DNA of 64,000 nt from an uncultured Actinomycetota bacterium (GCA_963737075.1 CAVTRI010000004.1:65695-129694); one strand, 5' to 3'; counted from the stretch's first letter, positions 1 to 64,000 are shown. A program made the numbers and translations. Notes: a model not told the origin generated them from the sequence alone.

Positions 1-497
1 TGTAACGGGATCTTGGCATCCGAGGGATGAAGCGCCTGCTTCCCGCGGCCGATCATGACCGGGTGAACGTAGAGGCGGTACTCGTCGATCAGGTCGTGGC
101 GGGCGAACTCCGCACCCAGGTCGGAGCCGCCGAGGACGATGTGCCCCCCGGGCTGTGCCTTGAGAGCGAGCACCTCGGCCGGCACGACGTCGTGGGCGAT
201 CGTCGCATTCCACCTGGCATGTTCCAGGGTGCGTGAGTAGACGACCTTGGGCATGTCCCGCCATATCCGAGCGAACTCGACGATCGTCGGTGTCGCGGCC
301 GGGTCCTGATCCGCTGTCGGCCAGAACTCGGCCATCAGCTCGTAGGTGACTCGCCCTTCGAGGAAGGTGCCAGCGGCGCCGATCCAGCCGTTCATGTGGC
401 GAGGAGCTCGTCATCGACCATGCCAGTCGATCTTCCGGTTTGGCCCTTCCATGTAGCCGTCGACCGACACTGACATCGTCCAGATGATCTTGCGCAT
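1..497 (-). pseudogene. RibD C-terminal domain (dihydrofolate-reductase-like) family protein, copy a; 3' end lies beyond the window; internal stop
   Basis: Minus strand from ATG 497-495 reads MRKIIWTMSVSVDGYMEGPNRKIDWHGR, then TGA at 413-411. The same frame resumes MNGWIGAAGTFLEGRVTYELMAEFWPTADQDP...IVLGGSDLGAEFARHDLIDEYRLYVHPVMIGRGK. The family-typical VDDELLAT is readable only in another frame between about 415 and 388, implying two nearby compensating indels. Confidence 0.75.
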
Positions 498-499
498 GG

Positions 500-994
500 T
501 CAGTCCCGGACGTCGGCGGTCATTTCAGCAACCTGTTCGGCGAGGTGTGCGAGGGAGTTGCCCAGATGCTCTGGAGGGAACGGCGGGAACCCGATGTGTT
601 CTCGGATCGGGTCTGCGACTGCCGACCAGTCGTAGGTGAGTGTCACAGTGGTTTTCGACGGTCCGGCCGGCGTGAGGTCGTATCGCCAGACCCAGCCGGG
701 AAAGCTCACGCTAGCGTCGAAGGCCTCATTCCCCGGCTCCCAGGAAATGGTCGTTGGGGGGTCGAACACGTGAACACGATTGGCCATCTGGTAGGTGCCG
801 TCGGGGTGGCCCGGATGGTACATGGACATCCGGAAGATCTGCCGAGCGGCGGGCAATGGCTTGCGGTCGACGGCTTCGCGGACCCAGCCGGTGCCATCGA
901 TGGCAGCGTGCTTCGCCGGATCGGCAAGCACGGCGAAGATCGCCTCCGCCGGAGCCTGAATCACCGTGGTCGCGCTGACTCGCTCGTCGGCCAC
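500..994 (-). CDS. SRPBCC (polyketide cyclase/dehydrase-like) family protein
   Basis: Intact 164-aa ORF. The N-terminal pattern SATTVIQAPAEAIFAVLADPAKHAAIDGTGWV is typical of SRPBCC ligand-binding proteins. Its stop lies 2 nt from the start of RibD_C copy a. Confidence 0.65.
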   Translation of the reverse strand: MADERVSATTVIQAPAEAIFAVLADPAKHAAIDGTGWVREAVDRKPLPAARQIFRMSMYHPGHPDGTYQMANRVHVFDPPTTISWEPGNEAFDASVSFPGWVWRYDLTPAGPSKTTVTLTYDWSAVADPIREHIGFPPFPPEHLGNSLAHLAEQVAEMTADVRD

Positions 995-1020
995 TTCGCT
1001 ACCTCCTCAATCGTGTTGGA

Positions 1021-1681
1021 CTAGTCACGCTTCGGCGCTGGCGGCCCTGGCGGCCCGGACAGAACCGTTGGGACGTACTCAAGCAGTTGGATGCGTCCGT
1101 CGAAGGTGCGGCTGTTGATCATGTCGAGCGCCACGTCCGGATAGCCGTCGTAGATCCGCTCCCGGCCGGTGCTCCCGGTGATCACGGGGAAGACGACCAC
1201 GCGGAAGCGGTCCACCAGACCCGCATTCAGCAGTGAGCGGCATAGGGTCAGGCTGCCGATCGTGCGCATCGACCTCGACTCGCCTGCCTTCATCTCTCGC
1301 ACCACCTCAACCGCGTCCCGGGCGACGAGCTGCGTGTTCGCCCACGCTAGTCATCCGTCGGTGAAACAACTTCGGCGGTTGGATACACGGCAGCCACCGA
1401 AGTCAAATCCGCGACGCCGGACTAGGGGCTCGTGCAACGTCGTCGAGAAGACGACCTTGGACATGCCGGCCAGGGGTTCGGTGCCTGGCTCGCCCGCAGC
1501 GGCGAATGCCGACATGACGCGATAGGTGGTTGCGCCCATCAACACGGTGTAATCGGCTTCGGGGGCCTCTGCGAGCCAGGCCAGGTACTCGGGCCCCTTC
1601 CAGGCCCCACCAGCCCGGCCATCCCTCAGCGGCCGCGTAGCCGTCCAGCGACGTGATGAAGTCGATGAGCAGTTCCGGCAT
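1021..1681 (-). pseudogene. RibD C-terminal domain family protein, copy b; multiple frameshifts plus an inserted palindromic segment
   Basis: Three frames are needed. They read MPELLIDFITSLDGYAAAEGWPGWWGLEG, then PEYLAWLAEAPEADYTVLMGATTYRVMSAFAAAG...VVFSTTLHEPL, then AWANTQLVARDAVEVVREMKAGESRSMRTIGSLTLCRSLLNAGLVDRFRVVVFPVITGSTG. About 70 nt of extra sequence, with a 10-bp-stem hairpin at 1369-1403, separates the last two parts. Confidence 0.75.
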
Positions 1682-1693
1682 CGTCGTGTGCCG

Positions 1694-2320
1694 CTACGTC
1701 CGGTGGCCATGGTCATCTATCAGGTTCTCCTTCGCCTGCTCGTATCCGCCCGTAGGCGGGTCTGGGTCAGGGCCGTAGACCAGGTACATCACGCCCGTGG
1801 CGAACGGCTGTGAGGAGACCAGGCGGAGCGGGATCTGTGAACTGTCATCCGCGAAGAGACGCAATCCCGTACCGGCTAGCACCGGATGGACGAAAAGATG
1901 CAGCTCGTCAAGTAGTCCCGCTCCTAGCAGTTGGCGCACGACCGAGACCGACCCGCTCAGCGCGATTCGCCCGATCGTGGGGGTGGCCTTGAGGCGAGTC
2001 ACCTCCTCGATGAGGCCGCCCTGAAGCTGCTCGGAGTTGCGCCAAACGAGCTGGAGCGGTCGCCGCGAGGCGACGATCTTGCGCATGTCGCCGAGGTGCT
2101 TGGCCATGGCTGCGTCCGCCTCGCCGGCAGCCTCGCGGGCCGGCCACGCGCCGGCGAAGCTGTCGTAGGTGACCCGGCCGAACAGCATCAAATCGGCGTT
2201 GTGGGTTCCTTCGACCGCTTTGCCCATCTCGTCGTTGAAGTACGGAAAGTGCCAGGAACCGATCATCGGGTCGACGACCCCGTCGAGGGCCATGAACATG
2301 CTGGACGTGATGGTCGCCAT
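1694..2320 (-). CDS. RibD C-terminal domain family protein, copy c
   Basis: ATG at 2320-2318 preceded by GGGGAGA. Reads MATITSSMFMALDGVVDP...FGRVTYDSFAGAWP...ALSGSVSVVRQLLGAGLLDELHLFVHPVLAGTG. The 359-aa ORF in the track is an upstream over-extension. Confidence 0.8.
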   Translation of the reverse strand: MATITSSMFMALDGVVDPMIGSWHFPYFNDEMGKAVEGTHNADLMLFGRVTYDSFAGAWPAREAAGEADAAMAKHLGDMRKIVASRRPLQLVWRNSEQLQGGLIEEVTRLKATPTIGRIALSGSVSVVRQLLGAGLLDELHLFVHPVLAGTGLRLFADDSSQIPLRLVSSQPFATGVMYLVYGPDPDPPTGGYEQAKENLIDDHGHRT

Positions 2321-3769: not shown

Positions 3770-4645
3770 GTGGTCGTCTTCGTGGTGGGCGGGGTCGTCG
3801 GTCTGCGATGAGCGGGCGCCGAGGTCACGTAACCATGAGATGACGTTCTGGCCTACCTGGCCGGCTACCTGATCGAGAAGAGCCTGTCGGTCGACTATGT
3901 GTTCGTGTTCGGCCTCATCTTCACGTTGTTCGGCATCCCCGGCGCATTTCAACACCGGGTCTTGATGTTCGGGGTGGTGGGCGCCGTGGTGATGCGGGCC
4001 GGCTTCATCGCCGGCGGCGCCGCCCTGCTGGACGCGTTCGCGCCCACCATCTACCTGTTCGGGGCGTTGCTGGTCTTCACCGCATACCACGTGCTCCGCC
4101 ACGGCGGCGAGACTATGAACCCACAGGGGAACGGGGTGCTCCGGTTGACAGGTCGGGTCCTGTCCTCCACAGACACCCTGGACGGACCACGGTTCTTCAC
4201 CCGCGTCGACGGGCGACGGGTGGCTACCCCCCTCTTGGCCGTGCTCGTGGTGATAGAGACGACCGACGTGATTTTCGCTGTCGATTCCATCCCGGCCATC
4301 TTCGCCGTGACACGCGACACCTTCGTCGTGTTCACATCGAACGTGTTCGCGCTGCTCGGCATGCGGGCTCTCTAGTTCCTCCTCGCAGGGGCTGCCCGCC
4401 GCGTCCGCTACCTCCAACCCGCCCTGGCCGTCATCCTGGCCGGCGTCGGCGTCAAGCTCCTGATCAGCGACATGTATCACGTCCCCCTGTGGGGCTCGCT
4501 CATATTCATCCTCGTGGTCCTGGCCGTCGCCGTCATGCTGTCGGTCACCGCGACCAGCCGCCGAGCCCCTACCGTCGGAGCCATAACGCCGACCGACGTC
4601 CCGGCGAGCCGCAGCGTGCCCGACCCGTATCCCGGTCCTGGGTGA
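3770..4645 (+). pseudogene. TerC/Alx family integral membrane protein; N-terminal deletion plus an in-frame TAG
   Basis: Reads LAGYLIEKSLSVDYVFVFGLIF...DSIPAIFAVTRDTFVVFTSNVFALLGMRAL, then TAG (4373-4375), then FLLAGAARRVRYLQPALAVILAGVGVKLLISD to TGA 4643-4645. The family has LRALYFLL at this point, so TAG replaces a Tyr codon. An upstream in-frame stop sits at 3836, and only about 15 codons separate the first TM-like WVVVFVVGGVVGL from LAGYL. Confidence 0.8.
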
Positions 4646-4708
4646 CGGTGGTCGACCTCCCCCAAGGGGCGGTCCTCACCACAGCCACCCCGTGTCGGTG
4701 ATGGCGCG

Positions 4709-5359
4709 ATGGTGCCGGCCACGATCCCGTTCGCGGTGGCCGCCGCGTTCTTTCCGCCCGCGCTCGCCGTCATGGTCTGGCTTCTGGCCACCCCGCCCGG
4801 CAGTCGCCGAGCCTTGATCTACTTGGGCGGCGCTGCGACGTCCACCGTGGTCAGCGGGGCGCTGATCATGGTCGTCCTGCGCGGCGTCGACATCGACGCC
4901 AGCCTCCGGACCCAGATCGAGGCGGCGGTGCAGGTGACCCTGGGCAGCGTTTTCGTGAGTGTCGCCCTCGGGCTGGTGATCCGTCAACCCCGACTGAGAC
5001 CTCGCGACGCGACCGTCGACGCCCCCAGGTTGCGCGCCGGTGGCTATGCCGGGATCTACTTGTTGGGCGTCGTCATGTGGATGCCGTCATTCGCCTACAT
5101 CGCCGCGATCGACCTCATCGTGGATTCCGATCTGGCCCTCCCCCGCCAGATCCTGAACCTTCTGCTCGTCGATCTCATCGTCCTCGCCACCGTCGAGATC
5201 CCCCTCCTGCTTCAGCTGCTGGTACCGACGGCCAGCACCCGCGTCGTCGCCCGACTGGACGATCTCGCCCGCCGCTACGCCTGGCAGCTGGGCACCCTCA
5301 CCGCGGGAGGCGGCGGCATCTACCTCATCATCCGAGGCTCACTCGAGCTCGCCGCGTGA
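4709..5359 (+). CDS. multi-pass membrane protein (GAP-family-like)
   Basis: 216-aa ORF with about 6 hydrophobic segments and good GC3 bias. Family assignment is from memory only. Confidence 0.5.
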   Translation: MVPATIPFAVAAAFFPPALAVMVWLLATPPGSRRALIYLGGAATSTVVSGALIMVVLRGVDIDASLRTQIEAAVQVTLGSVFVSVALGLVIRQPRLRPRDATVDAPRLRAGGYAGIYLLGVVMWMPSFAYIAAIDLIVDSDLALPRQILNLLLVDLIVLATVEIPLLLQLLVPTASTRVVARLDDLARRYAWQLGTLTAGGGGIYLIIRGSLELAA

Positions 5360-5640
5360 CCGGCGACCACCCTGCGCCGGTCCGCTCGGGATGTGACCGG
5401 GATCCCGCGGGCGGCGACCGCAGGTCGGCCAATCAAGGAACTGGTCGTGGCCCACGGCGAGTCTGTAGCGCGGCGCCAGCCCAGCCGACGGGTGGCGCAC
5501 CATTTCTGGTGCGCGTCCCGCTTGCGACTGAGGGCTAAAGCGGCCGGGGGGCGAAGCAATTCTCCACAACGTCTCCGTCCCGTAGACATCTCTCCCGCAC
5601 GCCGACGCGGTCCCCTGGTGGCCGTGACCGCACTGCTGCA

Positions 5641-6247
5641 CATCCGCCGACGTGGTCGACACCACCCTGGCACAGTGGCCGCCGTTATCGACTTCGGCCC
5701 ATTCGCGCGCCGGCGGCCACCTCCGCCGTGCCCAGCCGCGACCAGCTGACATGGGAGACGATCGTCGGTGCCGTGGAGCGCCGGTTCGGGCGGGCGTCGG
5801 TCCCACGGGGCGTCGAGGGTCTGCTCGCCCATGCCACCTTGGGCTGCCGGCAGGACAATGGATTCGAGCTCGACCGCTGGATCGAACTAGTTCGCACCAT
5901 AGTGATGCGCTACGGCGCCGACCTCAGCTCCCTGCAGATCACCAACGAGCCGAACTTGTCGTTTATGGACGGCGCCAATCCCTATGTTCTCGAGGTCTTA
6001 GTCCATGGGGTGATTGCGGCCAAGGAGCAGGCGCGCCGTCAAGGCGTCCAACTCGATGTCGGGTTCGGTTCGGTCCCCCGCAGGGCCGTCGCTGCCCAAC
6101 TTCTGGAGCGACATCGCCGCTCGCGCCAAAGAGAAGCTTATCGAGGCGGTCGATTTCGTCGGACACAACTTCTACGTCGACGTATTCGAAGAGCCCGTCC
6201 AACCGGAAGATATCCCTGCACACGTCGAGAGCCTGCTAGTGACCTGA
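5641..6247 (+). pseudogene. clan GH-A glycoside hydrolase fragment, frameshifted
   Basis: Reads ...RWIELVRTIVMRYGADLSSLQITNEPNLSF...VLVHGVIAAKEQARRQGVQLDVGFGSV in one frame. It continues ...PNFWSDIAARAKEKLIEAVDFVGHNFYVDVFEEP in another (ORF 6014-6247). The NEP acid/base motif is present. No credible N-terminus. Confidence 0.55.
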
Positions 6248-8510: not shown

Positions 8511-9747
8511 TCACGAGGTGCCGAGCCAAGCGTACGCTGCCGCTAGCAGCGTCTCCACCCCGGTTTCCAAGGTCGGGTGTAGCACCGGCGCGAAGCGCGG
8601 GTTGTGGTTGGTCGGCAATTCGGCAAGCCGGCCTGCTTCTTTTGCCTGGTGGTACTTCTCCGGATCGGTACCGCCGATGGTCCAGAAGACCGCAGGGGCG
8701 TGCCACTCGCTGCCGAAAGAGCCGAAGTCTTCGCTGGCCGATATGGGCGGGATGTCAACCACGTGCTGGTCGCCGAAGTGGGTCTGGAATGCGGTTCGCA
8801 CCCGGGTGGCGGCGTCGGGGTCGTTGCGGACGAGCTGGTATCGGTCCAGCGGCGTGATCTCCGGCGCCTTGGGCGCGCCGGACGCCTGCGCTTCGGCGTC
8901 GACGATCCGCTTGATCGCGTCGAGCACGTGTTTGCGGATGCCCTCGTCAAAGGTGCGTACGTTCAGTTTGATGATCGCCTCGTCGGGGATCACGTTCTCT
9001 TTGGTGCCGGCCTGCAGCGCACCCACGGTGAGAACCGCTGACTGCGCGGCCGCGACCTCTCGAGAGACGATCGTCTGCAGGCGCATGACCGTGGCCGCGG
9101 CCATGACCACGGGGTCGATGCTCGCCTCCGGCATCGAGCCGTGCGCGCCGCGGCCGAACATGCGGATCTCGAAGCTGTCGGCTGCTGAGGTGATCACGCC
9201 CGAGCGACTCCCGATCATGCCCGCCGGCTGGGGCATCACATGCTGGCCGAGGATGACGTCGGGCTTGGGGAACCGGTCGAAGAGGCCGTCGTCGATCATG
9301 GCCTGGGCGCCCGCCGCGGTCTCCTCGGCGGGCTGGAAGACCGCCATCAGCGTCCCACCCCAGGCGTCGCGCAGCTGCGGACAGCTGGGCTGTCGCGCCC
9401 GCCAACCAAGCGACGTGCATGTCGTGGCCGCACGCATGCATGACACCCTCGACTGTGCTGGCGTAGTCGAGACCGGTCTGCTCCTGCACTGGGAGCGCGT
9501 CCATATCGGCGCGCAGCATCACCGTCGGTCCGTCGCCATTGTGGAGCACGCCGACGACGCCGGTATTCCCCACCCCCGTGGTCACCTCGAAACCAGCTGT
9601 CTGCAGCCGCTTCGCTGCGAGCGCAGCGGTCCGCTGCTCCTTCATGGATAGCTCGGGATGCCGGTGAACTTCCTTGTACAGCCCCTCCAGGTCGTCGAGC
9701 ATCGTGCCGACGCCGGCGAAGAGCGACTCGCTGCGTTCATCACTCAT
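8511..9747 (-). pseudogene. M20 family amidohydrolase (hippurate hydrolase / N-acyl-amino-acid amidohydrolase type), one frameshift
   Basis: The N-terminal ORF (9747-8947) reads ...LHNGDGPTVMLRADMDALPVQEQTGLDYAS..MHACGHDMHVAWLAGATAQL. The C-terminal ORF (9446-8511) reads ...RDAWGGTLMAVFQPAEETAAGAQAMIDDG...MFGRGAHGSMPE... The frame switch is at about 9370-9392. Confidence 0.8.
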
Positions 9748-9794
9748 GGTTCCTCCTTGGTGACACGCAAGCGTCTGAAGCTGGCTACCCGCCA

Positions 9795-9808
9795 GTGAGC
9801 ACGCTCAC
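9795..9808. promoter_or_regulatory. perfect 14-bp palindrome GTGAGC-AC-GCTCAC upstream of the M20 gene (candidate operator)
   Basis: Seen directly in the sequence, about 50 bp upstream of the M20 start codon at 9747. Confidence 0.3.
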
Positions 9809-47044: not shown

Positions 47045-47140
47045 CTTCCACCTCCTCCACTCGAACAATCACCTCCGAACCGAGCACCGTCACGGGCACA
47101 GCCGCCGGTTCGACCAAAACCTATTCCACCTTTGATACTG

Positions 47141-51757: not shown

Positions 51758-51882
51758 GGGTCACCTCCTGTTGGCGGGGCACCTCCCCGACCCAGGAGAG
51801 ACTATCTCATAGTTTTTCGTGTGTCGATAGTATTTTTCAAGCACGGGATCGGCCGGATGGGGCCTTCCCTGGGGTTCGCCAG

Positions 51883-51932
51883 TTGCCATCCCGACCGCGA
51901 CGCGGTAGTATATCGAGTATGCAATCGAGCAT
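51883..51932 (+). promoter_or_regulatory. candidate padR promoter (-35 TTGCCA 51883-51888, 17 nt, -10 TAGTAT 51906-51911) followed by ATCGAG-N6-ATCGAG / TATGC-N6-GCATA repeats
   Basis: Read directly in the AT-richer divergent intergenic region 51758-51968. Confidence 0.35.
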
Positions 51933-51968
51933 AACACCAGTGCTGTTGGTCGCTCCGGCGAGGCCAGC

Positions 51969-52592: not shown

Positions 52593-52798
52593 CCACGCTG
52601 GAGCTAAACCAGGTATCGAAGGTCTATGGCGAGGGACCGACCGAGGTGCACGCCTTGCGCGACGTGTTCCTCGAGGTCGAATCGGCCGAGCTGGTGGCGG
52701 TCATGGGCCCGAGCGGTTCGGGCAAGAGCACGCTGCTCACCATCGCCGGCAGCCTGGAAGAACCAACTAGCGGCGAAGTGCTCGTCCAGGGATCTTCT

Positions 52799-54280
52799 CT
52801 ATGAAGAGGGGCCGGTTGTCAAGGGGCAGGCCTGTCTGCGCCAGCCCTGTCTTGTGTGGGAGCCGGGGTCAAGGCCGCAGGCCGAGCGGAGTGAGCGCAG
52901 CGAGCGGAGGCCTTGACGCCGGCGGGGCGAAGGTTGTCGCCAGCAATCATGGACTTCGTGCCGCAGCCCGGCTGCGGCACCTGGTTGCCTTTTGCCTCCC
53001 GGTCATGGGTGGAGCGGTGCTCATCTCTCTATCGCCAGCTCGTGGGCATGGACTATGCCGATGGGAGGCTCGCTCCGGTAGCGCATCTCCTTCGAGGGCT
53101 GTCAAGCAGCCACGACCCCTGGTGGCGCCTGCCGAAGCGATGACTCGATCATCATGCGGCCTTCGATGCGGGAAAGCCGGCGGGGGCGAAGACCTCGCCG
53201 TTGGCGAGCATGTGCCAGATGGCTTCGGCCAGTCTGCGGGCGAGGTCGACCCGGGCGACCTTCTTGCCCCGCTGCCGACCGAGACGTTTGGCGGTGCGCT
53301 GGTAGCGCTCGGCGTACACCGGATGTTGGGAGGCTTTGGTGGTCGCCTCGATTAGCGCCCAGCGCAGGTACTTGGGCCCGTTCTTGGCCAGGCTGCCCCT
53401 GTGGTCGGACTGGCCGGACTGATAGACGCGCGGGCACAGTCCGGTGTAGCCGCACAGCTTGACAGGAGTGGGGAAACGGGCGATGTCGCCGATCTCGGCG
53501 GCGATGGTGTAGGCCAGCACCCACGAGATTCCGGGCACCGTAAGCAGCAGCCGCACGTACGGGTGATCGACGCCCTCGGCCTTGAGCTCGTCCTCGAGGG
53601 TGGCGATCTCGAAACTGAGGGTGTCGATCAGCCGGATCGCCGCTTCAACATCCCCGCGCCACGGCTCAGGGAAGGCCAGGCGGTCCAACAGGTCACGGCC
53701 CTCGACACCGAATAAATCAGCGACTGGGCAGGGGTGACCGAACGCCACCAACGCGGCATGCACCCGGTTCTTCAATGCCGTGCGGTGTCGAACCAGATGC
53801 AGCCTCCAGCGGGCCAACTCCCGGGCACCACGGGTGGCCGGGTCCGGCAACCAAATGGAAGGGACCAGATCCCGGCGGGACAGTTCGGCCAGCACCCAGG
53901 CGTCGATACGGTCCGTCTTACAAGCCAGAGGGGCCAACCCCTTCACCTTGGCGGCGTCCGCGATCTCCACCCGCCAGCCCGCCAACTCCAGGGTGTCATG
54001 CACGAAGCGGGCGCCGTTCATCGACTCGATCACCGCCATCACATGCCGCCCTCCCGGCTGGCGGGCCACCTTGCGCACCAACCCCCGCAGTCCTAACAGA
54101 TCCGGGGGCACGCTCATCGCGGCCACCGTCGAGCCACCCTCGGCCAACAAGTGCACCTCCAGCGACTTGCGTGACAAATCCAACCCAGCGTGCAACATTG
54201 GTCATGGCCTCCCTTGGTGATGGGGTAATTCGGTGACAACACGCTGTCACCGGGGGAGGCCCCTCTTCATGGCATTCCTT
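52799..54280 (-). mobile_element. IS110-family element of IS1111 type (sub-terminal inverted repeats, long 3' non-coding arm)
   Basis: Perfect 13-bp inverted repeat ATGAAGAGGGGCC (52801-52813) / GGCCCCTCTTCAT (54258-54270). The exact ends are ambiguous by a few nt (52799-52801 and 54277-54280). Confidence 0.8.
53152..54198 (-). CDS. IS110-family transposase (DEDD N-domain plus Transposase_20 C-domain)
   Basis: 348 aa. Contains MLHAGLDLSRKSLEV, VIESMNGARF, KTDRIDAWVLA, LLTVPGISWVLAYTIAAEIGDIARF and LCGYTGLCPRVYQSG. Confidence 0.9.
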   Translation of the reverse strand: MLHAGLDLSRKSLEVHLLAEGGSTVAAMSVPPDLLGLRGLVRKVARQPGGRHVMAVIESMNGARFVHDTLELAGWRVEIADAAKVKGLAPLACKTDRIDAWVLAELSRRDLVPSIWLPDPATRGARELARWRLHLVRHRTALKNRVHAALVAFGHPCPVADLFGVEGRDLLDRLAFPEPWRGDVEAAIRLIDTLSFEIATLEDELKAEGVDHPYVRLLLTVPGISWVLAYTIAAEIGDIARFPTPVKLCGYTGLCPRVYQSGQSDHRGSLAKNGPKYLRWALIEATTKASQHPVYAERYQRTAKRLGRQRGKKVARVDLARRLAEAIWHMLANGEVFAPAGFPASKAA

Positions 54281-54787
54281 GGCCAACATGTCGCGCCACC
54301 AACGGGCCCGCCTGCGGCGCCGCTCCATCGGCTACGTCTTCCAGGACTTCAACCTCCTGGCGGGCCTGACCGCGGTGGAAAACGTCTCCCTGCCATTGGA
54401 GCTAGACGGCATCTCAGCCAAACCAGCCCGCGCCGCCGGCATGGCCGCCCTCGAGGAGCTGGGCTTGAGCGACCGGGCGGCCCGCTTCCCCGACGAGCTA
54501 TCCGGCGGCGAACGCCAGCGGGTGGCCATCGCCCGAGCCGCGGTGGGTGAGCGGAGCCTGCTGTTGGCTGACGAGCCATCAGGGGCGCTGGACTCAGCCA
54601 ACGGGGAAGCCGTGATGCGCCTCATCCGCTCCGCCTGCCAGCGGGGCGTGGCCGGAATAGTGGTGACGCACGACGCCCAGCTGGCGTCGTGGGCCGACCG
54701 GGTGGTGTTCTTGCGCGACGGTCGAGTCGTCGACCAGACCGCACCGCCGGCCGGCCCCGAGTCGCTCCTGACCCCGATCCCCAACCG

Positions 54788-57310
54788 ATGACCGTCGCCA
54801 TCGGCGGCCGGCCCGTGACCAGGGCAGCCGGCGGCACCGGCCGCGCCAACACCGACGGGGGAGCCCCCGCCCGCCGCGCGGTCGTCCGCTGGGCGTGGCG
54901 GCTGTTCAAACGGGAATGGCGCCGACAAGCCCTCATCCTCATCCTGCTCATGGTGGCCATCGCAGCCACCGACATCGGTTTGGGTGTGGCTTCCAACGCC
55001 ACCAACTTGAAAGCCGACCCGTCCTTCGGCACCGCCAACACCATCATCAACTTAGACGGGTCCGAACCCACCCTGGCCGCCGACATCTCGGCCATCCAGA
55101 GCCGCTTCCGCCCGGTCGACGTCGTCGCCCACCAGAGCCGGCCGATCCCAGGGTCGGTGTCCAGCGTGGACATCAGGTCCGAGAACCCGTACGGCCGCTT
55201 CGACCATGTGACCGTGCGCCTCGACCGCGGCCGCTATCCGGCCGGCGCCGGCGAGGTGGCGGTGACCAGCGACGTGGCCCAGACCCTTGATCTGCATGTG
55301 GGCAGCCAGTGGAGCGCAGGGGGCCGCTCCTTCAGGGTGGTTGGGATCGTCGAGAACCCACTCAACCTCGACGACCAGTTCGCCCTGGTGGCTCCGGGGG
55401 AGGCCAACCCGCCGGCGAGCGTCGACCTTCTCCTCAACGCCACCCAGGGCAGCGTGCAGGGCTTCAACCTGCCAGGCGGCAGCGGGCCCAATATCGAGCA
55501 GCGCGGCGCCGGCGGCAAGGTCCAGGGCGAGACCGTCATCCTGGTTTTGGGCACCGTGGGGCTGATGTTCGTGGGGCTGATGGCGGTGGCCGGATTCACC
55601 GTCATGGCCCACCGGCGCATGCGGGCCCTGGGCATGCTGGGCGCCATCGGAGCCAGCGACCGCCACATCCGGCTGGTCATGCTGGCCAACGGCGCCGCCG
55701 TCGGCGCCACCGCCGCCACCTTGGGCACCAGTGCCGGGCTGGTCGGCTGGTTGGCGTTTGTGCCCACACTGCAGTCTCTCGCCGGGCATCGAGTCGACCG
55801 CTTCGCCCTGCCCTGGTGGGCGATCGCCGCGGCCATGGTGCTCACCGTCGCCACGGCTGTCCTATCCGCCTGGTGGCCCGCGCGAGCCATCGCGCGCCTA
55901 CCGGTCGTGGCCGCTCTATCGGGGCGCCCGCCCCGGCCCCAGCCGGCCCACCGTTTCGCCGCCCTGGGCGGGGCGCTGTTGGCCGGCGGTCTGGTCTTGC
56001 TCTCCTTCGCCGATCAACGCCGGGTGGCGTTCATCATCGGTGGCACGGTCGCCACCGTGGTCGGTCTCCTGTTCCTGGCCCCGTTGGCCATCCGGGCTCT
56101 GGCCACCCTCGCGTCTCGGACGACCATGGCGGTCCGCCTGGCCCTCCGAGACCTCGCCCGCTACCAGGCCCGGTCGGGAGCCGCCCTGGGTGCGGTCACC
56201 CTCGCTGTCGGCATCGCGGCCACCATCGCGTTGAGCGCGGCGGCGGCCCAGACCCCCACCAGCGCCGGCAACCTGGCCGCCAACCAACTCCTCTTACATA
56301 CGACTCGGGTGGGTAACGACGGCGGCACCGGCCCAACACCTCCGCTCACCAGCGACCAGCTGCAGAGCGCCACTGCCCAGGTCGACAAATTGGCCGCCGG
56401 CATCCACGCCAACTCGGTGCTGACCCTCTATGAGGCCTACGACCCGCAATCCCCCATGGTGCCGGCCCAGCCCGGGTCGCCGGCCGGCTACCAAACGGCC
56501 TCGCTCGCCCAAATCACCGCTAACGGTCCGGGCGAGGAGATCAATGCCGTCAGAACCCTCTACGTCGCCACCCCAGCAGTGCTGGCCCACTACGGCATCC
56601 CGGCGGGCAAGGTGGACCGGGACGCTGACGTCGTCGCCTACGACCGCCACCTGAACGGCCTGCAGATATTCACGCCGCGGAACTCGCCACGCACGGCAAG
56701 AGCAGCCCACCGCCCGAGCATCCAGGTCCTCAGCCAACTACCCCGTTACTCGTCCGACCCGGGCGCCCTCATCACCGCCCACGCCATGCAGGAACTCAGC
56801 CTTCAGTCGATCCCGGCCAGCTGGCTCATCCAGACCGCGCACCCCCTCACCGCGGCCCAGATCAGCACGGCCCGCACCGCCGCGGCCGCCACCGGCCTCT
56901 ATATCGAGACCCGCCATGCCCAGAAAACCCTGGCTCCGCTGCGCAACTGGTCGACGGCGGCGGGCATCCTGCTGGCTCTCGGCGTGCTATCGATGACAGT
57001 CGGTCTGATACGAAGCGAGACCGCCAATGACCTGCGCACCCTCACCGCCACCGGCGCCGGCGCCCGCACCCGCCGCGGCCTTACCGGCGCCACCGCCGGC
57101 GCCCTCGCTCTGCTCGGCGCCGTTCTCGGCACCGCTGGCGCCTACGCCGCACTGCTGGTATGGCACCGCAGCGACCTCAGCCCGCTCGGGCGGGTGCCGG
57201 TGGCCAACCTGCTCGTCATCCTTATCGGCCTGCCGAGCCTGGCCCTGGTCGGCGGCTGGCTGCTGGCCGGCCGAGAACCACCGGCAATCGCCCGCCGGCC
57301 CCTCGAGTGA
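54788..57310 (+). CDS. ABC transporter permease with two FtsX-like domains
   Basis: ATG 54788 overlaps the ATPase stop (ATGA). About 840 aa. Shows the RRAVVRWAWRLFKREWRRQALILILL N-terminal pattern, two 4-TM blocks and a large extracytoplasmic domain. Confidence 0.8.
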   Translation: MTVAIGGRPVTRAAGGTGRANTDGGAPARRAVVRWAWRLFKREWRRQALILILLMVAIAATDIGLGVASNATNLKADPSFGTANTIINLDGSEPTLAADISAIQSRFRPVDVVAHQSRPIPGSVSSVDIRSENPYGRFDHVTVRLDRGRYPAGAGEVAVTSDVAQTLDLHVGSQWSAGGRSFRVVGIVENPLNLDDQFALVAPGEANPPASVDLLLNATQGSVQGFNLPGGSGPNIEQRGAGGKVQGETVILVLGTVGLMFVGLMAVAGFTVMAHRRMRALGMLGAIGASDRHIRLVMLANGAAVGATAATLGTSAGLVGWLAFVPTLQSLAGHRVDRFALPWWAIAAAMVLTVATAVLSAWWPARAIARLPVVAALSGRPPRPQPAHRFAALGGALLAGGLVLLSFADQRRVAFIIGGTVATVVGLLFLAPLAIRALATLASRTTMAVRLALRDLARYQARSGAALGAVTLAVGIAATIALSAAAAQTPTSAGNLAANQLLLHTTRVGNDGGTGPTPPLTSDQLQSATAQVDKLAAGIHANSVLTLYEAYDPQSPMVPAQPGSPAGYQTASLAQITANGPGEEINAVRTLYVATPAVLAHYGIPAGKVDRDADVVAYDRHLNGLQIFTPRNSPRTARAAHRPSIQVLSQLPRYSSDPGALITAHAMQELSLQSIPASWLIQTAHPLTAAQISTARTAAAATGLYIETRHAQKTLAPLRNWSTAAGILLALGVLSMTVGLIRSETANDLRTLTATGAGARTRRGLTGATAGALALLGAVLGTAGAYAALLVWHRSDLSPLGRVPVANLLVILIGLPSLALVGGWLLAGREPPAIARRPLE

Positions 57311-57681
57311 CCACGCGCTGGTGACTGACCGGTTCCACGGTTCGTGACGGCTGCCCGTTGGCAGAGGGCGTGACCCTTCATTCTTGGGTGTCACCTCTTC
57401 ATCTGAGGCCGCGTTAGAAGGTGCGAGCAGGGTGCTCCCGGCCTGGCACTGGGGTGAGAACGCCCACTTCCACACCACCGCCGTCTCGGATGATCGGGCA
57501 GGTCTTGGCGAGTTCGCCGACAGCGTCAAGGTCGTCGGCCATGACCAGGGTGTAGGTGACGGTTGGGTAGGGAGCTGGCGAGGTGGTAAGCGGTAGGCGG
57601 CACCGGGCTCAGGTCTCTCGGTTTCCCGAGAGCCGCCGTGTTCGGCGGCCATGGTTCACTCCTTCTCCAGCTCCCCCCCGT

Positions 57682-57714
57682 CGAACCGTGCATGCGGTTC
57701 TCCCGCACACGGCT
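57682..57714 (-). ncRNA. group II intron domain V
   Basis: The minus strand reads GAGCCGUGUGCGGGAGAACCGCAUGCACGGUUC. This matches the domain V consensus (GAGCCGUAUGCGGUGAAAGCCGCACGUACGGUUC-like), including the AGC triad position and a GNRA-type loop. Confidence 0.85.
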
Positions 57715-57726
57715 CACCGACGTCCT

Positions 57727-59037
57727 TCACCGGCGGCGTTCGGCGACGAGAGCCCGCCAGGCGTAGTTGGGCCTGGGCGCGACGACGGTTCCGCTGAGGG
57801 AGACAAGGCCAAGCCGGTTGGTCTGGCGGATAACGAACCATCCGTAGCGGACGCTGCGGCGGTGCAGCTTGGCGACGAAGATCGCCACCCGCGAGACGGC
57901 GTACTTGCTGATCTTGTCGAAGTGCCGAGCCGAGTTCCCGATACGGAAATAGGCGGCCCAGCCTCGCAGGAAGCGGTTGACGCTGCCCACGATCTCCTCA
58001 ATGGGCACCAGCAGCCGGGCCCGGGCCGTGAGCTCACGGATCCGGTCCCTGGCATGCTGGAGCGCCCGGCGTGAGGGCCAGCGGGCAAGGAAGGCGAAGC
58101 GCCGTGCCCCGGTGCGTCCCCGGGCGCGCACCAGTCGGTGGTGGAAGCCGAGGAAGTCGAAGCCCTCGCCTCCTTCCTCCAGGTGCACGATGCGGGTCTT
58201 GGCCTCCTTGGCCTCCAAGCCAAGGCTGACCAGGATCAACCTGAGCTTGGCCAGAGCCTGGGTGGCCTCGGACTGGGATCGACACATCACCACCAGGTCA
58301 TCGGCGTAGCGGACCAGCACCCCGCTCCCCTCGGTCTCCCAGGCCCGGTCGAGCTGGTTCAGGTAGACGTTGCAGAGCAAAGGCGAGACAACCCCGCCCT
58401 GAGGGGTGCCGCTGGCTTCGTGCCTGACCGCGCCGTCCTCCATCACCCCCGAGCGCAGCATCGCCCGCAGGAGCTTGAGGACCTTGCGGTCACAGACCCT
58501 CTCCTCGACCGCAGACATCAACCGGTCGTGCGGGATCGCCGCAAAGCAGTTGGCGATGTCCGTCTCCACCACCCAACGCCTGCCCCTGAAGGACTCATCG
58601 AGCAAGACCTGCAGGGCATCGTGGGCCGCCTTCTTCGGGCGGAACCCGAAGCTGGCGGGCCGGAAGTCGGCTTCGAAAACCGGCTCGATGACGATCTTCA
58701 ACGCCGCCTGCACGATGCGGTCCCGCACCGCGGGGATCGACAGCGGACGCTTCTCGGCCTGGCCGGGTTTGGGTATCCACACCCGCCGGGCTGGAAGCGG
58801 CCGATACGTCTGCCCCCTGAGATCCGAGGCCAGCTCGTCGAGCAAACGGCTCTCGCCGTAGCGCTCGACAGCTTGGATGGTGATCCGGTCGACGCCGGCC
58901 GCGCCGCGATTGGCGCGTACCTGCGCCCACGCCCTCCACAACACGTCCCTGCGGTGAACCTTGTCGTAGAGCGCATGGAACCGTCGCCGGGGATCGGCCT
59001 TGGCCGCCCGGTAAAGCTTGCGCTGCAAAGCACGCAC
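57727..59037 (-). CDS. group II intron-encoded reverse transcriptase/maturase, lacking its first ~18 codons
   Basis: Contains RGAAGVDRITI, PKPGQAEKRPLSIPAVRDRIVQ, TPQGGVVSPLL, RYADDLVVMC (the YADD motif) and the maturase X-domain RFLRGWAAYF. The original AAGGAG-N6-GTG start (60338) lies on the far side of IS630 copy 2. Confidence 0.9.
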   Translation of the reverse strand: MRALQRKLYRAAKADPRRRFHALYDKVHRRDVLWRAWAQVRANRGAAGVDRITIQAVERYGESRLLDELASDLRGQTYRPLPARRVWIPKPGQAEKRPLSIPAVRDRIVQAALKIVIEPVFEADFRPASFGFRPKKAAHDALQVLLDESFRGRRWVVETDIANCFAAIPHDRLMSAVEERVCDRKVLKLLRAMLRSGVMEDGAVRHEASGTPQGGVVSPLLCNVYLNQLDRAWETEGSGVLVRYADDLVVMCRSQSEATQALAKLRLILVSLGLEAKEAKTRIVHLEEGGEGFDFLGFHHRLVRARGRTGARRFAFLARWPSRRALQHARDRIRELTARARLLVPIEEIVGSVNRFLRGWAAYFRIGNSARHFDKISKYAVSRVAIFVAKLHRRSVRYGWFVIRQTNRLGLVSLSGTVVAPRPNYAWRALVAERRR

Positions 59038-59068
59038 CGCGTCGATTTCCTCGACGCCAAGGGCGGGA

Positions 59069-60322
59069 CTAGTGCCGCATCAAGCAACCTTTGCGCGCTT
59101 TGAAACAGCACGAAGTGCTTCATGGTCCTTGTGGCGGTTGCGCCAGGCGATGTAGCGGCGGATCATCGAGTTCTGCTCCTCATGGCTTTGATGGTCGGTG
59201 CCGTTGAGAGCGAAGTAGCGCAGCGCGGTGAAGTGACATTCGATGCGATTGAGGAAGCTGGCGTTGGTCGGCACATAGGCCAGCTCGGCGTTGTTCGCGG
59301 CCGCCCAGTCACCGACCCGACTGTCTTTCTTGGTCGAAAGATGCGGAGTGAAGTTGTCCATCACGATCGCGATGCGCACCTCGGGCGGGTAGAGGCTGCG
59401 CAGGTAACGGCAGAACTCCAAGAACTTGGTCCGGTTCTTCGTGGTCTTGATGTGACCGTAAAGGTGGTCCCGGTTCATGTCCAGCGCGGCGAGCAAATGC
59501 CGCACACCCTTGGTGCGCTTGTAGGTGGCCCGGTTCCGACGCCGCCGCGGGGCCGAGGTTGAGCCCTTCGATCCTCGCCGCACCACCGGCGCCCACTGCT
59601 TTCCGGGCCGGGGCAGCAGATTGAGCGGGCCGAACTCGTCCATCGAGAACACCACCGGTGGGTCGCCTGGCCCAGGGGTCGCCTTGCCCTCGGCGATGTC
59701 GTACAGCTCGAGGACACGGTTCTTCTTCGCCTCGAAGTCGGAGTCGGTGGACTGCTTCCAGGTCTTCACCGCTTGAAAGGACACCTCCTCGTCACGCAGG
59801 ACCAGCCGGAGCCCCTCGTGGGAGATGTCGTCGACCACCCCCTCGGCCACCAAGAACTCAGCCAGCTTGGCCAGGCTCCAGGTCGAGAACGGCAGACCGT
59901 GGTCGCCGGGACGGGACAAGGCGATCTTCTTGATCGCCTGGCGTTGCGGCAGCGTAAATGTCGGCGGACGGCCACCGGCGTACTTCGGATAGAGCGAATC
60001 GAAGCCATCAGCGTTGAAGTTGTTGATCACTTCGCGCACCCGGTCGGCACTGGTGAAAGTCACCTTGGCAATACCAGACACGTCCATTCCCTGCACCGAC
60101 AACAGCACCATCTGCGCCCGCCGCCAAGTAACCACCGAACCCGACGACCGCCGGACGATACGAAGCAGCCGGTTGCCCTCTTCATTCGAGACCTCCCGGA
60201 CCCGCAAACCTTCCCGAGCCACCATCACCTCCGATCGGACACCAACATGTCCGATCAGCGTGACCGGCCCTACCTCGCCGATGGTGGATCTACCAGGCAA
60301 ACGTTCCCGGACGCGGCACTAG
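59069..60322 (-). mobile_element. IS630-family insertion sequence, copy 2, nested in the group II intron
   Basis: 1254 bp with the same termini as copy 1 and CTAG at both ends. Confidence 0.9.
59080..60300 (-). CDS. IS630-family DDE transposase
   Basis: 406 aa, identical to copy 1 except for one residue (Gln versus Pro in LLSV[Q/P]GMD). Confidence 0.9.
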   Translation of the reverse strand: MPGRSTIGEVGPVTLIGHVGVRSEVMVAREGLRVREVSNEEGNRLLRIVRRSSGSVVTWRRAQMVLLSVQGMDVSGIAKVTFTSADRVREVINNFNADGFDSLYPKYAGGRPPTFTLPQRQAIKKIALSRPGDHGLPFSTWSLAKLAEFLVAEGVVDDISHEGLRLVLRDEEVSFQAVKTWKQSTDSDFEAKKNRVLELYDIAEGKATPGPGDPPVVFSMDEFGPLNLLPRPGKQWAPVVRRGSKGSTSAPRRRRNRATYKRTKGVRHLLAALDMNRDHLYGHIKTTKNRTKFLEFCRYLRSLYPPEVRIAIVMDNFTPHLSTKKDSRVGDWAAANNAELAYVPTNASFLNRIECHFTALRYFALNGTDHQSHEEQNSMIRRYIAWRNRHKDHEALRAVSKRAKVA

Positions 60323-60917
60323 CCACACGGGCACTCACCGGCAACTCCTTGTGACGCAAGCACAGACGAAGCAGCGGCCCTTCCCATCACCGGCGGTTAT
60401 GTTGTCCGACCGGCTCGAGCGGTACTACGGCCGCCTCCGACTCCCTCCCGGCGCACCGCCCACTTCCCGGCTCATCACCAGTTATAGAGCGTTACCGTTC
60501 CCACGTGCTCCGCAGCCGTCGGGCCGGGGAGGGCCTCCACAGTTCCCGCCGCCACCTTCCGAACGTTCCGCGCCCTCTACACCGGGGAGTCCTTCGCGGC
60601 TGCACCTCCAGGCTCTTCACCGCTTCCATGGCCTTCACCGTGAAAGACGCGGCTCGGCTCTCCCTCCGCCCCGCCCGAAGGCGGGCACACTAACGATGCG
60701 GCAGGCTTCGCTTGACGCTACGGACCGCTCGGTCGCTCCCCCCAAGGGGCTTTCGACGTTGGGCTTCGACCCGGCCCGTTTCCAGACTGAGCCGCCAACC
60801 TGCTACCGGGCTCCCTGGCGATCACCCGGACCGGACTCACACCGGCTGGCGACGACGAGCTTCCAGTCAGGTCATGTCAACTCGATAGGCACCTCCTGAC
60901 TGCTGTGCGCACTCCTA

Positions 60918-62315
60918 GGGTCCCTGTAAATCGGACTGGCCTGAGCTTCCATGTTGAGGTCCGCTCAAGGACCAAACAGGGAGGCTCAGGCCGATGAGGA
61001 GAGTACCGCCGTCCATGCTCGTGCGCGAGGAACTCGATCAGCTGCTGCATGGCAGCGTCGACGAGGGCACGAATATCGTGTCGAGTTTGGTGGAGACGAT
61101 CACCCGCATGGTGGTCCAGGAGCTGTTGGAGGCCGAGCAGGCTGACTTCTTGGGTGGTCGGGGCCGCTATCAGCGGCGAGCTGGAGACCAGCGGGGCTCT
61201 CGCAACGGCTATGAGGACGGCGGGATCCGCACCGCCGAGGGGGCCATCGGCGTCCGTTTACCCCAGGTGCGCGGGGCCGGCGAGCCGTTCCGGTCGGGCC
61301 TCATGACTTTCTTGGAGGGCAACTCCGAGGTCCTGGATCGTTTGGTCACCGAGATGTACGCCCGGGGCCTGTCCACCCGCGACGTGGAGGACGCATTCCG
61401 CGACGCCACCGGGGAGCTGCTCATCTCCAAGTCGGCGGTGAGCCAGATCACCGATCAGCTGTGGGAGGACTACTCGGCCTTCATCGCCCGCGATCTCTCC
61501 GACGTCGAAGTCCACTACTTGTTCTGTGACGCCGTGTTCGAGTCCCTGCGCCGCCAGGGGGCCAAGGAGGCGCTGCTGGTGGCCTGGTGCATCGACTCCG
61601 AAGGCCGCAAGCACCTGCTGCACCTGGCCGTGGGCAACCGGGAGTCCGAGGTGGCCTGGACGGAGTTCTTCCGGAACATGTTGGGACGTGGACTGCGCCT
61701 GCCGACCACGGTGACCTCCGACGGCGCCCCGGGCGTTCTCCGGGCAATCGGGGCGGTATTCCCCAACAGTGTGCGCATTCGTTGCTGGTTCCATCGCCTT
61801 GCCAACATCCGCTCCAAGCTGCCCGACGAGTCGGCCGCTGAGGTCATGGCGCATTTGTATGCCATCCGTGACGCGCCGACCATCGACGCCGCCCGGGCGG
61901 CCGCCGACCGCTTCGAGAACACCTACGGCCGCCAGTTTCCCTCGGCCGTGGCCTGCTTCGCCGACGATCGCGACGCCCTGCTGGCGATCCACCGCGTCCC
62001 GGTGCGTCACCGCATCCGGGTTCGTACCACCAACCTGGCCGAGCGGTCCTTCGAGGAGGAGCGTCGGCGGACCAAGGTCATTCCCCGGCTAATGAGCGAG
62101 AGGGCCACCATGAAGCTGGCCTTCGCGGCCATGATCCGCGCCGCCGATCGCTGGTGCCGGGTCTCGATCAACGATCTCGAGCGCCACCAGCTCAGGCTCC
62201 TACGAGCCGAGCTCGGCCTCGATCCGCCACCCGTCCAGGACCAACCCAACCGTCGAAGGAGACCGTCCGAGCGAACCGCGGCATAGGCCCACGCCACGAG
62301 CATTTACAGACCTTT
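60918..62315 (+). mobile_element. IS256-family insertion sequence (ends approximate)
   Basis: Left GGGTCCCTGTAAATCGG (60918-) versus right CATTTACAGACC (62301-62312, reverse complement GGTCTGTAAATG). A second CTGTAAA-containing candidate right end lies at 62391-62410. Confidence 0.6.
60994..62286 (+). CDS. IS256-family (Mutator-like) transposase
   Basis: 430 aa. Contains EAEQADFLGG, RNGYEDGGIRTAEGAIGVRLPQVRG, YARGLSTRDVED, YLFCDAVF, VTSDGAPGVLRAI, IRCWFHRLANI and TTNLAERSFEEERRRTKV. Confidence 0.9.
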   Translation: MRRVPPSMLVREELDQLLHGSVDEGTNIVSSLVETITRMVVQELLEAEQADFLGGRGRYQRRAGDQRGSRNGYEDGGIRTAEGAIGVRLPQVRGAGEPFRSGLMTFLEGNSEVLDRLVTEMYARGLSTRDVEDAFRDATGELLISKSAVSQITDQLWEDYSAFIARDLSDVEVHYLFCDAVFESLRRQGAKEALLVAWCIDSEGRKHLLHLAVGNRESEVAWTEFFRNMLGRGLRLPTTVTSDGAPGVLRAIGAVFPNSVRIRCWFHRLANIRSKLPDESAAEVMAHLYAIRDAPTIDAARAAADRFENTYGRQFPSAVACFADDRDALLAIHRVPVRHRIRVRTTNLAERSFEEERRRTKVIPRLMSERATMKLAFAAMIRAADRWCRVSINDLERHQLRLLRAELGLDPPPVQDQPNRRRRPSERTAA

Positions 62316-62524
62316 CATGGCGGTGGCCGCCACGAATGGATGAGAATCGTGGCGGGTCCGGCTGAGCTCGCTCTTCCTTGGTGCAGTTGAGCCCGTTTTA
62401 CAGACTGACGCCCGGGGTCTTCCCGGCACCACGAACTGTTGTCCTCGAGCACGCCTCATAGCGTCGTTGATCGGTTGACCCTGCCGGCCCGCCCAGTCCC
62501 GCCGAGTAGGAGGAGGCCAAAATT

Positions 62525-63759
62525 ATGGAACTGGTGGTGCAGCGTTGCGCTGGGGTCGACATCGGCAAGGACGAGGTCGTCGCCTGCGTCCGAACGCCGG
62601 GCGATCACGGCGGGCGTCACAAGGAGACCCTCACGTTCGCGACCTTCACTTCCCAGCTGGACGCCCTCGCGGACTGGTTCGTCGCTGACGGGGTCACCGA
62701 GGTGGTGATGGAGGCTACTGGCTCGTATTGGAAGCCGGTGTGGTATGTGCTGGAGGAGCGAGGGTTCGACCTGAGGCTGGTCAACGCTCGCCACGTCAAG
62801 CTCGTCCCCGGTCGCAAGAGCGACGTGGCCGACGCCGAATGGCTGGCTGAGCTGCTCGAACACGGCTTGCTGCGTTCCAGTTTCGTTCCCCGTTGGCGAT
62901 CCGTCTACTGCGGGACCTCACCCGGTATCGCAAGCGGTTGATCCAGGCTCATACCTCCGAGTGCCAACGGATCCAAAAGACCCTCGAAGATGCCGGCATC
63001 AAGCTGGGCTCGGTGGCCTCTGAGGTGCTCGGCGTCTCCGGACGTGCGATGCTGCGAGCGCTGATCGCTGGAGAGCGCAACCCCGAAGTCTTGGCTGAGC
63101 TGTCCCAGCGCAAGCTTCGTCGCAAGATCCCGGCGCTGCGAGAAGCGCTGCGTGGCCGCTTCGGGGACCACCACGCCTTGCTCGTGGGCATGTCGCTCGA
63201 TCATGTCGAGTATCTCGAGGCTCAGATCACCAGGCTGGACGTTGCAGTCGATCGAGTGATCGCCCCTTTTGCTGAGGCTCGCGACCGTCTCGACACCATC
63301 ACCGGCGTCGGCAAACGATCCGCGGAGTGCATCATCGCCGAGATCGGCACCGACATGAGTCGATTCCCCACCGCCGGGCACCTCGCATCGTGGGCGGGGA
63401 TGTGTCCGGGCAACAACATCACCGGCGGCAAACGGCGGTCTGGGAAGACCCGCAAGGGCAGCCCCTGGCTGGCCGAGATCCTCGTCGAGTGCGCCTGGGC
63501 CACCGCCCACGCTCGCAACGCCTATCTGTCCGCCCAGTTCTGGCGTCTGGCGCGGCGCACCGGCAAGAAGAGAGCCGCCGTCGCCGTCGGCCACTCCATC
63601 CTCATCGTCTGCTGGCATCTGCTCAGCCAAAACTGTGACTACGCCGACCTCGGTGACGACTGGTTCACCCGCCGCACCGACCCTGAACGCAGACGCGACC
63701 ACCTCATCCGCCGACTCCAAGACCTCGGCTACGGCGTCAGCCTCACCAAAGTCGCATAA
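62525..63759 (+). pseudogene. IS110-family transposase, second type, one frameshift
   Basis: Reads MELVVQRCAGVDIGKDEVVAC...MEATGSYWKPVWYVL...KSDVADAEWLAELLEHGLLRSSFVP, then switches at the C4 run 62888-62891 to LAIRLLRDLTRYRKRL...ITGVGKRSAECIIAEIG.DMSRFPTAGHLASWAGMCPGNN. Confidence 0.85.
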
Positions 63760-63762
63760 CGC

Positions 63763-64000
63763 CTAGTGCCGCGTCCGGGAACGTTTGCCTGGTAGATCCA
63801 CCATCGGCGAGGTAGGGCCGGTCACGCTGATCGGACATGTTGGTGTCCGATCGGAGGTGATGGTGGCTCGGGAAGGTTTGCGGGTCCGGGAGGTCTCGAA
63901 TGAAGAGGGCAACCGGCTGCTTCGTATCGTCCGGCGGTCGTCGGGTTCGGTGGTTACTTGGCGGCGGGCGCAGATGGTGCTGTTGTCGGTGCAGGGAATG
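63763..64000 (+). mobile_element. IS630-family insertion sequence, copy 3 (first 238 bp; continues beyond the window)
   Basis: Identical to the left end of copy 1 except for the same single C/A difference that distinguishes copy 2. It is inserted at a CTAG 3 nt after the IS110-type transposase stop. Confidence 0.9.

Follow-up and report, generated by a model that had tools for sequence, protein, structure and literature searches.

The window analysed here is a 64,000-nucleotide stretch of DNA from an uncultured Actinomycetota bacterium (GCA_963737075.1). It corresponds to C4:65695-129694 of a 6-contig, 5.65-Mb genome, where C4 denotes contig CAVTRI010000004.1. The window is crowded with disrupted genes, and most of it is probably part of a decaying, dispensable and strain-variable mobile island of 109 kb, in which a few frameshifts are possibly assembly errors, rather than a sample of a lineage undergoing genome-wide reduction. 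An earlier reading of the window alone, referred to below as the original prediction, had listed about 19 disrupted genes together with near-identical insertion sequence (IS) copies, and had proposed either early genome reduction or systematic indel error as the cause. Nearly all of these features were recovered at or near their predicted places by means of a frame map, Pfam matches and alignments, and the census came to about 20 disrupted genes or elements in addition to the near-identical IS copies. The prediction that some lesions exceed base-calling error also held. Nonsense codons, truncation, a 29-bp duplication, multiple indels or IS insertions affect at least 12 genes or elements, namely RibD_C a, RibD_C b, terC, the GH fragment, tal, CMP-kinase copy 2, a symporter, the second padR-like gene and its membrane partner, an ABC ATPase gene, an intron maturase and the gene that harbors the island attachment site. 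The window as a whole contains at least four nonsense codons and about ten frameshifts.

The six contigs of the genome measure 2.59 Mb (C1), 2.86 Mb (C2), 19 kb (C3; 18,877 bp), 132 kb (C4), 8 kb (C5) and 46 kb (C6), with a G+C content of 67-70%. Completeness is rated at 96.1% and contamination at 3.97%. Among the genomes compared, this is the sole member of its genus; the relatives available for comparison are bins at the family level, of which many are fragmented. For its phosphoketolase (XFP), the best-matching proteins come from environmental metagenome bins of Solirubrobacterales type. Several of these bins bear contig names in the style of long-read assemblers, from which the present genome is probably a long-read metagenome-assembled genome (MAG) as well. 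The region C6:37810-45924 is equivalent to C4:1-8114 at 99.8% identity, and C6:1-16125 is 96.9% identical to the beginning of C1. These overlaps identify C4 as a mobile, strain-variable region linked to C1. The possibility that C4 is a circular plasmid was rejected because it has no terminal overlap, and because C4 overlaps C6 and C6 overlaps the start of C1. The bin merges at least two strains, with C3 being an alternative haplotype.

Window positions 1-51580 lie inside a 109,158-bp integrative island that spans C4:8117-117274, and positions 51581-64000 constitute the island flank, which is laden with IS and a group II intron. The island borders emerge from the comparison with C3, which matches C4:123242-119969, then C4:118491-117275 without the IS110-type insertion present between these segments on C4, and then directly C4:8116-1. 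C4:117275 is thus joined straight to C4:8116 on C3, at 99.5-99.8% identity and with about 0.3% substitutions relative to the C4 flanks. Because C3 joins both flanks directly, it represents the haplotype that lacks the 109,158-bp island. At both C4 junctions, arms of about 32 bp form an imperfect inverted repeat about a common CC. One arm reads GGATTAGGTCGGGAAACTACCACGCAGAAAAG and the other is CTTTTCTGCGTGTAGTTTTTCGACTGAATGTCC in reverse complement, and the CC is present at both junctions and in attB, where the crossover would have taken place. In window coordinates, the attR arm at the right end of the island occupies 51548-51580 and repeats the left-end arm, from C4:8117 onwards, imperfectly and in inverted orientation.

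A recombinase gene, C4:8389-10041, starts 273 nucleotides inside the left junction and encodes the Pfam domains PF00239, PF07508 and PF13408 (Resolvase, Recombinase and Zn_ribbon_recom). The attB site is located within an open reading frame (ORF) for a 105-residue membrane protein. This ORF is intact on C3, and the junction falls at codon 58. On C4 the island splits this host gene at window position 51580/51581 and the gene resumes at 51581, a disruption that was absent from the earlier list. The flank encodes a type IV secretion system coupling protein, a TraG/VirB4-like P-loop protein and TrbL. The island therefore has a recombinase at one end, dyad-symmetric attL and attR half-sites and an unoccupied attB in C3, as expected of serine-recombinase islands. 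As judged from sequence, a large serine recombinase appears to have inserted the island into the small membrane-protein gene, beside the type IV secretion genes.

The part of the island interior that was scanned is a mosaic of tyrosine recombinases, GAF-ANTAR, ERCC4-Lsr2, MoaA, a beta-lactamase-fold protein, SelO, PMT_2 and MMPL, and no phage, resistance or own conjugation module was found among the scanned parts. The cargo is redundant. Two glucuronidase (uidA) modules share 72% identity, the second being without its transporter. There are also two pairs of lactonase (SGL) and G6PD genes, as well as four RibD_C genes. The island tkt, XFP and G6PD genes have chromosomal paralogues, and a near-identical terC resides on the chromosome. 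The two G6PD-family genes are only 30% identical, and in the second, at 41371-42588, the Pfam match of the C-terminal domain is broken into two stretches. Selection on the cargo is taken to be relaxed since the cargo is redundant, dispensable and absent from a co-occurring strain. Relaxed purifying selection would allow nonsense codons, small indels and slippage, truncating deletions, tandem duplication and transposition of active IS to pile up.

Disrupted genes were identified with codon log-odds trained on the long ORFs of the genome, Viterbi segmentation into coding frames and a Pfam scan of the segments. Single lesions were pinned by alignment to paralogues or orthologues, and for the MBL-fold gene, M20, RibD_C b, the GH fragment and a LarE-like remnant the three frames were read across each switch. 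The nonsense lesions include that of RibD_C paralogue a (1-501, minus strand), where the Pfam RibD_C match runs across an in-frame stop that is also seen in the frame map. Paralogue b (993-1700, minus strand) contains in-frame stops together with a +1 shift (G3 to G4) near 1589. The terC copy (3850-4650, plus strand; Pfam TerC) has a Tyr-to-stop change relative to its 97-98% identical paralogue at C2:1992780-1994412, with no indel in 1.63 kb, and the homology ends 5' of position 3850. Downstream, within a stretch designated non-coding (5355-5710), homology with the C2 terC-SfLAP locus (C2:1992686-1992907) resumes after a 56-nucleotide gap, which indicates that the duplicated terC block reaches past the two genes.

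Four further lesions are truncations or duplications. The transaldolase (tal) fragment at 35781-36009 (minus strand) retains only positions 55-123 of the 285 in the Pfam TAL_FSA profile. The remnant of CMP-kinase-like copy 2 (38170-38348, plus strand) is matched by a tblastn search with copy 1 only over residues 18-31 and 36-77, in two frames. The frame map leaves of an MFS_2 glucuronide-type symporter (40393-40526, plus strand) a 44-residue C-terminal tail, similar in its peptide sequence to the C-terminal end of the intact symporter at 27300-28703. The second padR-like gene (49900-50450, plus strand) contains a 29-bp tandem duplication at 49927-49984. Its membrane partner (50450-51200, plus strand) has accumulated several indels (-1, -1, +2 and others) relative to a 70% identical paralogue at C4:55775-57104. 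A short GH-like fragment (5711-6242, plus strand), for which no Pfam match was found, carries a +1-type frameshift near 6089 that fits a C4-to-C5 change before G, the position not being pinned.

Two insertion lesions lie in the flank. The ABC ATPase gene (52555-54785, plus strand; Pfam) is split by an IS110-type element at 52798-54274, whose transposase is on the minus strand, and C3:1-4488 matches both sides of the gene as an uninterrupted allele. The group II intron (57562-60912, minus strand) was recognized by Rfam models RF00029 and RF02003, with its ends at 57562-57717 and 60713-60848, and the IS630-like copy at 59069-60323 severs the reverse transcriptase/maturase ORF from its 5' portion.

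The remaining disrupted genes bear small frameshifts. Transketolase (tkt; 44129-45987, minus strand), otherwise in one piece, has a 1-nucleotide deletion at the G4 run 45339-45342. The original prediction had called for comparison with orthologues, and this confirmed the break: tkt is one ORF in three aligned relatives, close homologues are all 618-620 residues long and one 620-residue homologue is 85% identical. The two beta-glucuronidase genes were aligned to each other, with Pfam support. Copy 1 (uidA1; 25501-27283, plus strand; GH2) is either 2 nucleotides short (CCCCG to CCG) or has gained one at about 26035, and copy 2 (uidA2; 38637-40410, plus strand) has a +1 shift at 39908 (GCG to GCCG) and a -1 shift at 40151 (ACCG to ACG). 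The M20 peptidase/amidohydrolase gene (8515-9727, minus strand) has a +1-type shift near 9376, probably TCG to TCCG, and Peptidase_M20 is matched in two stretches in two frames. In the MBL-fold/ODP gene (43076-43832, minus strand; weak Pfam ODP match), a +1 shift (T3 to T4) lies near 43600, and the reading ...VER|LRWITFGHVESDECG is continuous across the two frames. Element B of the IS110 type (62400-63762, plus strand) was aligned with three other full copies, and a C5-to-C4 deletion at 62888-62891 splits its transposase. Element B is assigned to the IS110 type because it shares 26% tblastn identity with element A, which was typed by Pfam.

A probable addition to the earlier list is a frameshifted LarE-like remnant (GFTELRVHHPGEE; 28694-29185, plus strand), which was identified by eye from a GFTELRVHH motif and has no Pfam match. 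It is located between the glucuronide symporter and the XFP gene, with a LarA-like gene (19037-20296) about 8 kb away. A predicted rve remnant was left unconfirmed, with no Pfam match at E <= 0.01 in 9728-10922. Six-frame Pfam scans of 9728-10922, 37413-38640 and 49425-51600 returned no matches. A tblastx comparison of the non-coding stretches with the genome was swamped by compositional matches owing to the high G+C content, and the 5355-5710 homology was its sole useful result.

Recent IS activity is evident, and the IS families are taken to be active at present. The ABC ATPase gene carries its IS110-type insertion on C4 but not on C3, a polymorphism that makes this insertion recent. The IS630-like family comprises seven full copies and one interrupted copy at 99.7-100% identity. 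Two of the full copies and the interrupted one reside on C4. In the window, this family is represented at 47140-48394 (plus strand), at 59069-60323 (minus strand) and at 63763-64000, where the copy is cut by the window end. The interrupted copy (C4:129457-132234) contains a 1.5-kb rve-type IS (C4:130396-131916) inserted at its position 941, a nested arrangement at the contig end. The 1.5-kb rve-type family is larger, with 15 full copies (97-99.8% identity, 14 of them at 99.5-99.8%) and 2 partial ones. There are 9-10 copies of IS110A and about 5 of IS110B. An element at 60918-62350 (plus strand) with an intact 430-residue ORF (60994-62286) occurs as a single copy in the genome, and we read it as a putative IS256-like element.

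The window differs from the rest of the genome. The coding fraction, obtained by the same Viterbi method throughout, is 0.924 for C1 and 0.890 for C2 versus 0.802 for C4 and 0.82 for the window. Repeats of at least 500 bp and at least 90% identity make up 3.0% of C1 and 4.0% of C2 versus 24.6% of C4, and amount to about 120 intervals genome-wide. Frame-switch candidates were defined as same-strand switches at which the upstream frame remains open for more than 100 nucleotides beyond the switch. The window contains 12 such candidates (18.8 per 100 kb) versus 284 for C1 and C2 combined (5.2 per 100 kb), the chromosomal census being heuristic and not homology-based. When 20 chromosomal candidates were drawn at random, 8-10 of them (about 45%), smc and serA included, could be verified because a Pfam domain bridged the junction. 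When 20 stop-separated same-frame pairs were drawn at random from the chromosome, none was a nonsense-split gene, and all were judged by eye to be two different genes. Taken together, the two samples indicate that the chromosome has frameshifts and almost no nonsense lesions. The genes smc (C1:809717-813197) and serA (C1:453237-454851) are single-copy housekeeping genes that are frameshifted in the assembly, and in serA the break would be consistent with two C having dropped out of a C5 run that precedes G. The alignments of the chromosomal XFP paralogue (C2:993502-995815) and of one G6PD paralogue (C1:1165103-1166429) each fall into two overlapping pieces, a pattern suggestive of further frameshifts.

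The strongest rival to the decaying island is an unlikely one, that the damage is mostly artefact: consensus errors of noisy long reads, denser where depth is lower or mixed, with only the IS insertions and a few fragments being real. The assembly does contain error patches. In the comparison of C1:1-16131 with C6, 35 of the 37 gaps are 1 nucleotide long, and they are clustered within a few kb of the contig ends. The last 450 nucleotides of C3 contain eight deletions, seven of 1 nucleotide and one of 2. An rve-type IS copy (C2:594268-595737) has 28 deletions in 1.5 kb, of which 19 are single C losses, about half of them CCG to CG. A partial copy of the same family inside the island (C4:22009-22953) has 24 gaps relative to siblings that are 99.5-99.8% identical. 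Both gapped IS copies resemble stretches of the assembly that escaped polishing, and the deletions in such patches are biased towards a particular context. The scarcity of nonsense-split genes on the chromosome, the frameshifted smc and serA, the apparently frameshifted chromosomal XFP and G6PD and the long-read-style contig names among the closest relatives, themselves metagenome bins, are likewise what this explanation would lead one to expect.

Several of these observations weigh against the decaying island as well. Clusters of 1-nucleotide deletions at contig ends, and the context-specific losses of the C2 copy, demonstrate that the assembly contains error patches, and the commonest context of the latter recurs in the window. 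Five of the seven pinned small indels of the window alter the C count directly before G: those of tkt, IS110B (C5G to C4G), uidA1 and both sites of uidA2. The M20 shift probably shares this context. The background of C-before-G contexts is estimated at about one third, so that the excess among the window indels is suggestive but not conclusive. The single-base lesions are those of the assembled consensus. Frameshifts in smc and serA imply either errors or a decay that is not restricted to the island. If the island is present in only part of the population, read depth over it would be lower and the consensus worse. Finally, relaxed selection is argued from the redundancy and strain variability of the cargo.

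The larger share of the window damage is nonetheless of kinds that indel errors cannot yield, namely the nonsense codons of terC and RibD_C, the 29-bp duplication, the tal, symporter and CMP-kinase remnants and the insertions of IS and intron. The T3-to-T4 change of the MBL-fold gene and the G3-to-G4 change of RibD_C b also fall outside the C-before-G context. Of the ten accepted frame switches in the window, seven are of the +1 type, whereas the demonstrable errors are almost all 1-nucleotide deletions. Shift direction is a confounded discriminator, because the distance to the next off-frame stop varies with direction. Sequence away from the patches looks better: over the 12.6 kb of C4 that C3 or C6 covers there is one indel difference, which C3 shares, the terC copy aligns to its paralogue without an indel, and the seven IS630-like copies (8.8 kb) differ by at most one indel. 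Systematic indel error, as the original prediction had envisaged it, may thus explain part of the single-base lesions and probably most of the chromosomal frameshifts, and does not explain the bulk of the damage in the window.

By our own estimate, two to six of the roughly ten small frameshifts may be artefacts. The frameshifts of tkt, uidA1, one or both sites of uidA2 and IS110B may be consensus errors, and perhaps that of M20. The tkt G4 and IS110 C4 runs had been singled out earlier as possible artefacts, and both share the C-before-G context of the error patch. In addition, 3.7 kb separates IS110B from the contig end, a distance at which end errors are seen. External sequences were of limited help in this respect. 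An exact-protein look-up of XFP gave no match elsewhere, and metagenome contigs scanned with patterns across the tkt and uidA1 lesions gave none. In a protein search, the sole match at 100% identity was the truncated tkt of the window itself, and the others were at 85% or below. The best tkt DNA identity among relatives is 80%, and such relatives reveal breakage, not whether the break is an error. Motifs at the chromosomal frame-switch sites (GATC, GCGC, (CG)3 and homopolymers) were weakly enriched, with homopolymers of at least 5 at 16% versus 10% and (CG)3 at 6% versus 3.6%. This is a weak test because the switch points are imprecise and half of the candidates are false.

A second rival is lineage-wide early reductive evolution, in which pseudogenes and IS accumulate throughout the genome following a shift in lifestyle, the window being no more than a densely affected sample. 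This was the interpretation offered by the original prediction, and we consider it improbable. The chromosomal frame-switch candidates, of which up to half of those sampled were verified, smc and serA among them, are in its favor, as are the repeat intervals and several IS families at 99.5-100% identity. However, the chromosomal frameshifts are at least equally well explained by assembly error. The coding density of the rest of the genome, which the prediction had itself named among the grounds for its refutation, is ordinary (0.92 and 0.89 for the two large contigs) in a genome of 5.65 Mb, repeats occupy 3-4% of the chromosome and none of the 20 sampled stop-separated pairs is nonsense-split. 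The largest IS family consists of 15 full and 2 partial copies. Early reduction would entail a genome-wide load of nonsense and truncating lesions, a lowered chromosomal coding density and an IS family of about 100 or more copies, and none of the three was found. The decay is concentrated in the island and the mobile DNA that surrounds it, and it is only in this mobile island, missing from another strain, that hard lesions are in excess. Least probable of all is a variant in which a free-living, soil-type, high-G+C actinobacterium stands at the onset of erosion, with the frameshifts, including those of smc and serA, being real, the IS expanding and the island being lost in part of the population; true genome-wide frameshifts would make this an unusual case of incipient erosion in an environmental actinobacterium, and the evidence leans against it.

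The decaying island is thus a feature of an ordinary kind, ridden with IS, and only its size and the co-assembled empty site are of modest interest. The occupied and empty sites in one sample provide a natural before-and-after pair for the decay of island cargo. The island itself is a very large serine-recombinase island, at 109 kb, that carries duplicated glucuronide, pentose-phosphate and phosphoketolase modules. The window also serves as a cautionary case, in that many pseudogenes packed into a single window are no sure guide to the state of the lineage.

The comparison with known systems follows the same lines. Inflated frameshift counts of nanopore-type MAGs resemble the present assembly in the 1-nucleotide deletions at contig ends and repeats, the context-specific C loss and the broken single-copy essential genes, yet the window has many lesions that indel errors cannot make. 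The reducing genomes of Shigella, Yersinia pestis, Bordetella pertussis, Mycobacterium ulcerans and Sodalis likewise combine near-identical IS with frameshifted genes, some of them housekeeping genes. Unlike those genomes, coding density and genome size are ordinary here, IS number tens per family at most and not hundreds, and the hard lesions are in mobile DNA. Large-serine-recombinase elements include SCCmec with ccr, elements of the Tn5397/Tn4451 type and prophages of the phiC31 or Bxb1 type. The island shares with serine-recombinase elements the recombinase just inside one end, the imperfect dyad arms around a central dinucleotide, the integration within a gene and the empty attB in a sister haplotype. 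It differs from most described elements in being much larger, in its cargo of central-carbon and sugar catabolism genes and in its many IS. The closest resemblance is to accessory regions rich in pseudogenes and IS, such as decaying islands, plasmids and prophage remnants, which also exhibit redundant paralogues with mixed lesions, nested IS, low coding density and strain variability. There is no essential difference from such regions; about 20 lesions in 64 kb are at the high end of their range, and part of that number may be assembly error.

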